Part shown: in pieces, positions 28,401-31,400 of the stretch
How the letters are laid out: every line of letters begins with the position of its first letter
Numbering within the stretch: position 1 is the stretch's first letter
Source: Escherichia coli
GTDB taxonomy: Bacteria; Pseudomonadota; Gammaproteobacteria; Enterobacterales; Enterobacteriaceae
Length of the DNA: 64,000 bases
Assembly (NCBI RefSeq): GCF_041886205.1
Contig: NZ_CP169029.1
Reading direction: 5' to 3' (one strand)
Program-made: the position numbers

Positions 28401-31400
28401 ATGCTAAGCCCGATAGAAGTAATAACCACACCGGTAACCAGTGGCGGGAATAAAGGCATCAAGCGACCGATAAGTGGCGCTAATAATGTGGTGATAAAAC
28501 CCGCGGCGATAGTGGCACCAAAGATCCCCAGCAGGCCGATATCCGGGTTCATCCCAATGGCTATCATTGGTGTTACAGCAGCAAAGGTCACCGACATAAT
28601 CACCGGCAGGCGGATCCCCATAAAGCGGCCGATACCGATACATTGCAATAATGTGACGATCCCGCAGCAAAAGAGATCCGAGCTAATGAGCATCGCAATA
28701 GCTTCTTTTGAGAGGCCCAGTCGGTCACCAATCATAAGAGGAACAGCGACTGCACCTGCGTACATGACAAGGACGTGTTGCAGACCGAGTATGATCAGCT
28801 TTCCTGGTGATAATATGCGGTCAACCTCATCAGTTGGGCGGTCTTGCCCAGAAGATGAGGGAAGTTGGGAATCTATGGCGCTCATCAGTGTTTCTCCTTT
28901 CGCCCGCCAGAGTAAAAAGCAACCGTTTACGTTAATGAAACTGTCTAAACACATGCTCGTGGAGTGCCAGTTTTTGCGAGGAAGGGGAGTTAGAGACAGG
29001 AATTGCGGAGGCAATCACATAATCGTGGTTAAACCACGAAAATGAGAAGAGAACCTGACAATGGAATTATCTGTAATTTTCTCATATTGATATTTCATTA
29101 ATCATTCTGGCATGTCGCACTCTCGCATTTAATCGTTTTTATCTGGATAGCGCTCTTTTGATCGGCAATGTTGAAATAATGAAAGCGGCATAGATTGAGG
29201 GGCAATAATTTGAACTCAGTCGCAAAATTATAATTAAAACGGTCATGCTACCTAATATATGCCCGTTTATTGCATCGCGAAATTTGAGAAGACATAACTC
29301 ATTAAATGAAAGGGATGCAAATGAATAAGTTTATCGCTGCTGAAGCTGCGGAATGTATAGGCTGTCATGCTTGTGAAATTGCCTGTGCGGTGGCACACAA
29401 TCAAGAAAACTGGCCGCTGAGTCACAGTGACTTTCGACCGCGTATCCACGTTGTAGGGAAAGGCCAGGCTGCGAATCCGGTGGCCTGCCATCACTGCAAC
29501 AATGCCCCTTGCGTTACGGCTTGTCCGGTTAATGCTCTGACTTTCCAGTCCGATAGCGTACAACTGGACGAGCAAAAATGTATTGGTTGTAAAAGATGCG
29601 CAATCGCTTGCCCCTTTGGCGTCGTTGAGATGGTCGATACGATTGCGCAGAAATGCGACCTTTGTAACCAGCGCAGTTCCGGCACGCAAGCCTGTATTGA
29701 AGTTTGCCCAACACAGGCGTTACGACTGATGGACGATAAAGGGTTACAGCAGATAAAGGTGGCCCGCCAGCGCAAAACGGCAGCAGGAAAAGCGTCATCA
29801 GACGCTCAGCCATCTCGCAGTGCAGCGTTGCTCCCCGTTAACTCGCGTACAGGGCTTCGCCATCACGGGTCAGTTCCATCATCTCTTCAGTACAATGCCA
29901 GTCTTTGTGTTGCGCGTTCTGTGCCAGACACTGTTTTTCCAGTGCTTTTAAGCCTTCGTGATCGTTCGCACGCAGCAATTCAGTACGCTCTTCCATCACT
30001 TTGTAAGGTGCCCATGACTTCGGATAAACGATGTCTGCGTCTTTGAAGGCTTCTTCCATGCTGGTGACCTGACGGAAGCTACCACCGGAGGCTTTAGCAT
30101 TGTTTTTCGCCACTTCAACCACATCCGGGATCAGGTCGTAGCCTTCCGGATGGGCCAGGGTGACATCCATACCGAAGCGAGTCATCAGACCGATGATGCC
30201 TTGTGGTACAGAGAGCGGTTTGCCATAGCTTGGAGAGTAGGCCCAGGTCATGGCGATTTTTTTACCTTTCAGGTTTTCCAGTGAACCAAAGTGTTCACGT
30301 AACCACGCGAGGTCAGCCATTGACTGAGTCGGGTGGTCAATATCGCATTGCAGGTTCACTAAAGCCGGACGCTGTGGCAGTACACCCTGCTTGTAACCGT
30401 CATCAAGTGCAGCGCCAACTTCACGCATATAGGCGTTGCCTGCGCCCAGATACATATCGTCGCGAATACCAATAGCGTCGGCGCAGAAGGAGATCATATT
30501 GGCGGTTTCACGCACGGTTTCGCCGTGAGCGATTTGTGATTTGCCTTCGTCGAGATCTTGTTGTGCAAGGCCGAGCAGGTTAAGCGCGGAAGCATAAGAG
30601 AAGCGGGTACGGGTGGAGTTGTCGCGGAATACGGAAATACCTAATCCACTATTAAAGACTTTGGTTGAGATGTTTTCAGCACGCAGTGCTTTTAATGCTG
30701 CGGCAACGTCCAGTACTTGTTTCAGTTCATCTGGCGTCTGTTCCCACGTTAACAAAAAATCTTTCTCGTGAAGGTGAGAGGTCAGCGAATTGATATCCTT
30801 AATCAGCTCATTAACAGTTTTCATCATAAAGTCCCGGTAGTGGAATGACAGGCAAAGTGGTTTATTTCACTGTGACTTGCCAAAGTGATTGGTGTTTTCA
30901 CAGCTATACCTGGGACTAACAATAAGTGTGCCAGAATTATCCACGGGGCTGCAAAAGACTAATTTGACGGATAATGTGTGGGGTTGATCACAAATTGATG
31001 CCAGCTTCCGGTTGTTTGTAAAATACGAAAACGTTTGGCTTTTTTTATCGCGTTATTTATTTGCTGCTAAGTATCAGAAATAAGATAAAGGGACAGGCTA
31101 TCCCTCGTCAGTTTGATAAACTCACTGCCGTAATTCTCATATTGATATAGAAATGTGATATCTCTTCCATAATTTCATTAGAAAGTGATAAAAATCTTAT
31201 GTTTTTATCAAAGCCAATTTCGCCTGAGTTAATATCATCATGATCTGTGAACCATCAACGTCTTCAATGATCGACTTTTAAGTAAGTCTGGAAGGTAAAG
31301 CTATGGAGCTTGCTACTACGCAGTCAGTATTGATGCAAATTCAACCGACAATTCAGCGTTTTGCCAGAATGCTTGCCAGCGTTTTGCAGCTTGAGGTTGA

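Follow-up and report, generated by a model that had tools for sequence, protein, structure and literature searches.

Short-homology illegitimate recombination in E. coli removes an internal segment of DNA and leaves behind one copy of a repeat of a few bp, with no mobile element or filler at the joint. Recombination at such short homologies in E. coli is reportedly known from the Ikeda laboratory, alternative end-joining (A-EJ) in E. coli is said to have been described by Chayot et al. in 2010, and misalignment reportedly by Lovett in 2004. Alternative end-joining is RecA-independent and depends on RecBCD and LigA. The deletion described here, found in a 64,000-nucleotide stretch of E. coli DNA (the window), shows no structural difference from these short-homology and end-joining deletions and is mechanistically of an ordinary kind. 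What it removed is the E. coli uricolytic cluster, the pathway of which has been reconstituted with E. coli enzymes (10.1101/2025.04.24.650524; PMC12507026). In that pathway XdhD-YgfM carries out the reduction of urate to 2,8-dioxopurine, YgfK reduces 2,8-dioxopurine, SsnA and HyuA open the rings, YgeW together with the carbamate kinase YqeA yields ATP, and YgeY and YgeX complete the pathway to pyruvate (10.1101/2025.04.24.650524; PMC12507026).

Comparison of the K-12 MG1655 record with the window by BLAST gave two collinear blocks, 26000-29853 on the uacT/ygfT side and 29847-33858 on the ygeW/ygeV/xdhC side. The K-12 match in the left block ends 533 nt into ygfT, and that in the right block begins 978 nt before the ygeW start codon and runs onward. 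The gap between the two blocks is 23,163 bp in K-12 and 22,982 bp in strain 6EVA. According to the K-12 annotation the missing interval contains the 3' 72% of ygfT, 15 whole genes and the 3' 210 nt of ygeW. The 15 genes are, in K-12 order, ygfS, ghxQ, guaD, xanQ, xdhD, ygfM, ssnA, ygfK, mocA, yqeC, yqeB, arcC (yqeA), hyuA, ygeY and dpaL (ygeX). An earlier note on this DNA had supposed that the cluster from ygeX to ygfS was deleted, and its gene list is exactly that annotated between the K-12 breakpoints; the size it gave the separation, roughly 20 kb, has to be raised to about 23 kb. The note had also proposed aligning the window to K-12 for the exact breakpoint and any microhomology at the junction. 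That alignment places the breakpoint at 29847-29849, inside the interval of about 29830-29850 that had been suggested, with a 3-bp GTA overlap, and it bears out the joining of a ygfT 5' fragment tail-to-tail (convergently) to a 3'-truncated ygeW. As had been read from the window, ygeW ends ...EALYAS just before HCLP, where K-12 continues ...EALYMHCLP. The retention of uacT and xdhABC on either side likewise holds, since uacT, xdhC, xdhB and xdhA are full length; idi is also full length in the window. Around the scar the gene order is uacT (-), a short ygfT-like ORF (+), a short ygeW-like ORF (-), ygeV (+) and xdhCBA (-), with the following features:

27437-28885, - strand: uacT (urate/H+ symporter), left flank, intact, 482 aa with 0 differences from K-12 UacT; also uacT in the record of strain wlxctx60 (see below)
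29258-29274, + strand: retained sigma-54 site upstream of ygfT, TATGCCCGTTTATTGCA, an exact match to K-12 ChIP-seq site OS32
29321-29848, + strand: ygfT 5' fragment, codons 1-176 of 639
29321-30046, + strand: chimeric ORF of 241 codons, YgfT 1-176 plus a 65-residue out-of-frame tail from antisense ygeW
29838-30824, - strand: ygeW 5' fragment, codons 1-326 of 395, then Ala-Ser-stop
29847-29853, no strand: deletion junction, with the exact overlap GTA at 29847-29849 and an imperfect 7-bp overlap, GTAcAGG
30918-30934, - strand: retained sigma-54 promoter of ygeW, CTGGCACACTTATTGTT, identical to K-12 ChIP-seq site OS30
31303-33081, + strand: ygeV (sigma-54 activator of the locus), intact, 592 aa with 1 difference from K-12
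33121-36783, - strand: xdhC-xdhB-xdhA, right flank, open frames, full length

By blastn and tblastn none of the deleted genes was found elsewhere in the 64,000-nt window, the matches being paralogues only (uacT for xanQ, xdhA/xdhC for xdhD and the ygfT stump for ygfS). Nor are ygfT and ygeW natively this short, as more than 5,100 other complete E. coli genomes have both genes at full length. The complete wlxctx60 chromosome, which carries the same junction, was queried with a chimeric sequence composed of the junction flanks and samples, in reverse complement, of each of the 16 genes deleted or truncated, a DNA-level query that is blind to distant analogues. No relocated copies were detected on that chromosome; the query matched one place only and therefore the deleted genes have not moved elsewhere.

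The ygfT stump keeps the complete N-terminal 4Fe-4S dicluster domain and has lost the Fer4_20/pyridine-nucleotide oxidoreductase part; a Pfam search of the stump gave Fer4 families over residues 9-141 and nothing else. The ygeW stump stops short of the HCLP motif and has lost the 69 C-terminal residues. A tblastn match that extended YgeW to residue 368 was rejected as retained sequence, being a low-identity run-on past the breakpoint. Exact look-up with two start codons did not find the chimeric YgfT-tail ORF as a called gene in public collections. Exact look-up of the YgeW stump from its upstream Met also gave no record, and gene calls in public assemblies include the 328-aa form alone. This exact 328-aa product is EKI50607.1 (E. 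coli N1); NCBI, ENA and Logan together have 44 contigs that encode it. In the wlxctx60 record PGAP marks both stumps as pseudogenes, 'incomplete; missing C-terminus', and the two pseudogenes are thus already flagged in the RefSeq annotation. The truncations remove conserved C-terminal domains of the full-length orthologues, and both stumps are indeed pseudogenes.

The parental sites are ...CTCGC-GTAaAGG-CGC in ygfT and ...TGCAT-GTAcAGG-GCT on the ygeW side, and the product has GTAcAGG. The overlap is 3 bp when exact and 6 of 7 bp with one mismatch (GTAnAGG), and from comparison of the parental sites with the product the crossover therefore lies within the exact 3-bp GTA, inside the 6/7 imperfect repeat. 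The two blocks overlap by 7 bp, and no filler, unaligned bases, duplication or IS was found at the junction (29847-29853). Among 200,000 random deletions simulated on the parental sequence, P was 0.054 (5.4%) for an exact overlap of at least 3 bp and 0.0075 (0.75%) for a one-mismatch overlap spanning at least 7 bp. Hence, the exact 3-bp overlap alone exceeds chance only marginally (P about 0.05); the main grounds for a microhomology step are the imperfect 7-bp match and the lack of other explanations. RecA-dependent homologous recombination was rejected because no in-register direct repeats of tens of bp were found, and a hairpin-mediated deletion was likewise rejected; within 100 bp on either side of the parental breakpoints there were no long direct or inverted repeats, and the best direct match was 8 bp, out of register and at chance level. 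Site-specific excision of a genomic island was rejected because there is no integrase or tRNA, the segment is present in 5,143 of 5,426 genomes and the breakpoints fall inside two coding sequences. Deletion adjacent to an IS was rejected because no IS adjoins the junction, whereas IS1 stands at the joint in three strains that have lost the cluster independently:

ET358: IS1A between ygfT nt 1188 and the region upstream of ygeV
2018-02-2CC: IS1 between the uacT-ygfT intergenic region and a point inside ygeV
elppa5: IS1A between the uacT-ygfT intergenic region and a point deeper inside ygeV

The window has what is expected of a microhomology-mediated deletion: collinear flanks with the interior missing, a short shared sequence kept once, and no mobile element or filler. 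This form of junction points to illegitimate recombination at microhomology, of which it would be the signature. The deletion would have arisen in a single, RecA-independent step, either when a broken chromosome was joined by alternative end-joining that used the microhomology or through strand misalignment during replication. As 23 kb is at the large end for slippage, the break-and-join route would be favored.

Among 5,426 complete E. coli genomes the junction occurs in one, that of strain wlxctx60, which came from Asian black bear faeces in Gifu, Japan. Relative to wlxctx60 the window has an additional 13.1 kb at tRNA-Gly and a few SNPs, one of them private; it is therefore not the wlxctx60 record itself, an identity that we rejected, but another member of the same lineage. 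An identical 39-nt junction is present in nine other assemblies, wlxctx60 and eight further ones from NCBI, ENA and Logan, including E. coli N1; JGI metagenome contigs gave 0 matches to it. Eight contigs that encode the YgeW stump have 0-3 SNPs relative to the window across 12-21 kb. Carriers come from humans, a metagenome and a wild bear, and at the neighboring tRNA-Gly site they fall into three different states. In strain 6EVA (human faeces, Singapore) the cluster is complete. On the right flank 6EVA and the window are 100% identical across 8,259 bp; on the left flank, across 9,378 bp, there are five differences, three private to 6EVA, one private to the window and one (27373 A) common to all carriers. 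Since every carrier has 27373 A and neither 6EVA nor K-12 does, this SNP and the deletion together define the carriers as a clade. The survey of related strains that the earlier note had suggested thus turned up clonal carriers, the intact 6EVA and independent losses by other routes.

Of the 5,426 complete E. coli genomes, 5,143 contain the deleted segment at a coverage of at least 80%; full-length 395-aa YgeW is also found in Morganella and Aeromonas, and the two truncated frames of the window stop inside conserved domains. These observations show that the intact state is ancestral and that the scar is a recent deletion, clonally inherited. Taken as a whole, we consider it likely that the absence of about 23 kb reflects a genuine deletion from the chromosome that is fixed in a single, small clonal lineage of E. 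coli, that it was made in one step at microhomology and that it has the functional consequence given below.

An assembly or sequencing artefact, in which 23 kb that is really present had been collapsed, would be in keeping with the rarity of the junction (one of 5,426 complete genomes and no match in JGI metagenome contigs). However, ten independent assemblies, the window included, contain the junction, and they were produced by different groups and pipelines over more than 10 years (a complete genome, NCBI drafts, an ENA metagenome scaffold and Logan SRA assemblies). They have private SNPs and the three tRNA-Gly site states, 0 of 16 gene samples from the missing segment match elsewhere on the complete wlxctx60 chromosome, and a 7-bp imperfect repeat is unable to collapse an assembly. 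The ten assemblies exclude an artefact for all practical purposes. Hardly any credence can be given, either, to the reverse history in which the short ygfT and ygeW are native and the 23 kb was inserted in other E. coli. Only the lack of the segment as such accords with it, whereas both ORFs end inside conserved domains where 5,143 of 5,426 genomes continue, other genera (Morganella and Aeromonas) have the 395-aa YgeW and the nearest relative, 6EVA, is intact. Moreover, the K-12 segment has neither integrase nor att sites and its G+C is like that of the flanks (0.514 versus 0.504).

A two-step origin, in which an IS1 that had inserted in or near ygfT caused an adjacent deletion as far as ygeW and was later lost by imprecise excision, draws on the behavior of the locus elsewhere: IS1 is at the joint of all three independent cluster deletions inspected in detail (ET358, 2018-02-2CC and elppa5) and is named at most of the other deletion alleles listed, which makes it the common agent of loss here. 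Nevertheless, zero bases of an IS or of a target-site duplication remain at the joint, which is clean in all ten assemblies; both ygfT and ygeW are free of IS in 6EVA, the closest intact relative; and two rare events would be needed where one suffices. We regard this origin as improbable and retain the single-step deletion at microhomology.

Loss of the cluster is recurrent in E. coli. Using a flank-only query, the outer flanks of which merge into one match solely when the cluster is missing, uacT and xdhC were found brought together in 102 of 5,426 complete genomes. The approximately 20 distinct span lengths among the matches listed argue for many independent deletion events. Another count, that of genomes without an orthologous match to the segment, was 246 of 5,426, the best matches in these being at the level of paralogues or REP sequences. 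Besides IS1, the annotation names IS903B or IS2 at the joint of other alleles. The IS1-associated uacT-ygeV deletions (ET358, 2018-02-2CC, elppa5 and about 100 others) have lost the same cluster, have kept the same flanks, uacT and xdhCBA, and share with the window allele the predicted loss of anaerobic urate degradation. They differ in that the IS stays at the joint and the endpoints are different in the alleles inspected, whereas the window allele is IS-free and cuts ygfT and ygeW. Among the other-route alleles inspected, a subset of the 102, none resembled that of the window, and a literature search found no earlier description of the window deletion, the recurrent IS1 losses or the source strain. 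The anaerobic urate pathway thus seems dispensable enough in E. coli to be deleted repeatedly, and is not a given in every strain.

Neutral loss is not the only reading of this recurrence. Removal of the pathway, or silencing of costly sigma-54-driven expression, could have been selected in the niche of the lineage, and this would explain both fixation and repeated loss. It would fit with the joining of the flanks in 102 of 5,426 genomes with about 20 span lengths among the matches listed, with the 246 genomes that lack the segment and with the persistence and spread of the scar lineage, from the E. coli N1 assembly to a wild bear isolate in Japan. However, the cluster is still intact in about 95% of genomes, a figure that speaks for overall purifying selection, and frequent IS1 activity together with drift or hitch-hiking explains recurrent loss without selection. 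We therefore think selection for the loss in this lineage rather unlikely, and are similarly doubtful that the repeated independent losses (about 20 or more alleles, in roughly 2-5% of complete genomes) reflect selection in some hosts or niches. If they did, the contribution of E. coli to gut urate clearance would depend on lineage.

Published laboratory deletions in the pathway removed single genes, whereas the natural deletion takes all at once: XdhD-YgfM, YgfK, SsnA, HyuA, YqeA, YgeY and YgeX are lost and YgeW and YgfT are truncated. Also lost are the guanine deaminase gene guaD, the purine transporters xanQ and ghxQ, ygfS, the selenium-cofactor genes yqeB/yqeC, and mocA. From the published genetics and biochemistry the lineage would no longer be able to degrade uric acid anaerobically. 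MocA synthesizes MCD, the cytosine-dinucleotide molybdenum cofactor of xanthine-oxidase-family enzymes (PMC2997495). With mocA gone, xdhABC, although retained and intact, probably lacks its cofactor, as judged from review-level evidence on MocA dependence. Loss of mocA thus predicts collateral inactivation of the retained xanthine dehydrogenase and counsels caution when purine metabolism is inferred from gene presence alone. The anaerobic uric-acid pathway of gut bacteria was solved only in 2022-2025, is relevant to gout and is being engineered into probiotics against hyperuricaemia. A clean, lineage-wide deletion and the near-identical, intact 6EVA provide a natural knockout/wild-type pair in which the worth of the pathway in the gut could be assessed.

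The two retained sigma-54 sites correspond to sites mapped by ChIP-seq in K-12, where OS32 was assigned to ygfT and OS30 to ygeW (PMC4591121). In the window the two point toward each other, separated by about 1.6 kb of pseudogene, and no terminator-like site was found between the ygfT and ygeW stumps. Hence, convergent and mutually antisense stump transcripts are predicted whenever YgeV is active; that is, if the activator still fires, the stumps would be transcribed into each other.

Several neighboring features of the window deserve mention. Directly 3' of tRNA-Gly(CCC) is a 13.1-kb integrative island (38106-51238) flanked by a directly repeated 30-bp sequence, the 3' end of the tRNA, with att copies at 38076-38105 and 51239-51268. 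Its genes include:

39248-40387, - strand: TIR-domain protein
41081-41656, + strand: serine recombinase
42642-44582, + strand: DpdF/RecQ-like helicase
48997-49914, - strand: AbiTii-like protein
49935-51152, - strand: tyrosine integrase

Given this gene content, the element looks like a small anti-phage defense island. It is absent from wlxctx60 and 6EVA and present in E. coli N1 and several other scar carriers; in one scar carrier a different island, with a 538-aa integrase, replaces it. In prfB the window has a private SNP, T at 24604, where K-12 and all other assemblies compared have C. The change replaces Arg with Cys in the conserved SPFDSGG-R-RHTSF sequence of release factor 2, just after the SPF stop-codon recognition motif, and could be real or a sequencing error in the source assembly. 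Downstream of tRNA-Gly, at about 51,300-64,000 of the window (features 20,525-33,287 of the wlxctx60 stretch), lies the ETT2 type III secretion island, which is heavily decayed in the lineage. In the wlxctx60 record its EscU, YscQ, OrgA and SpaN homologues are frameshifted or internally stopped, and an IS1 adjoins yqeI.
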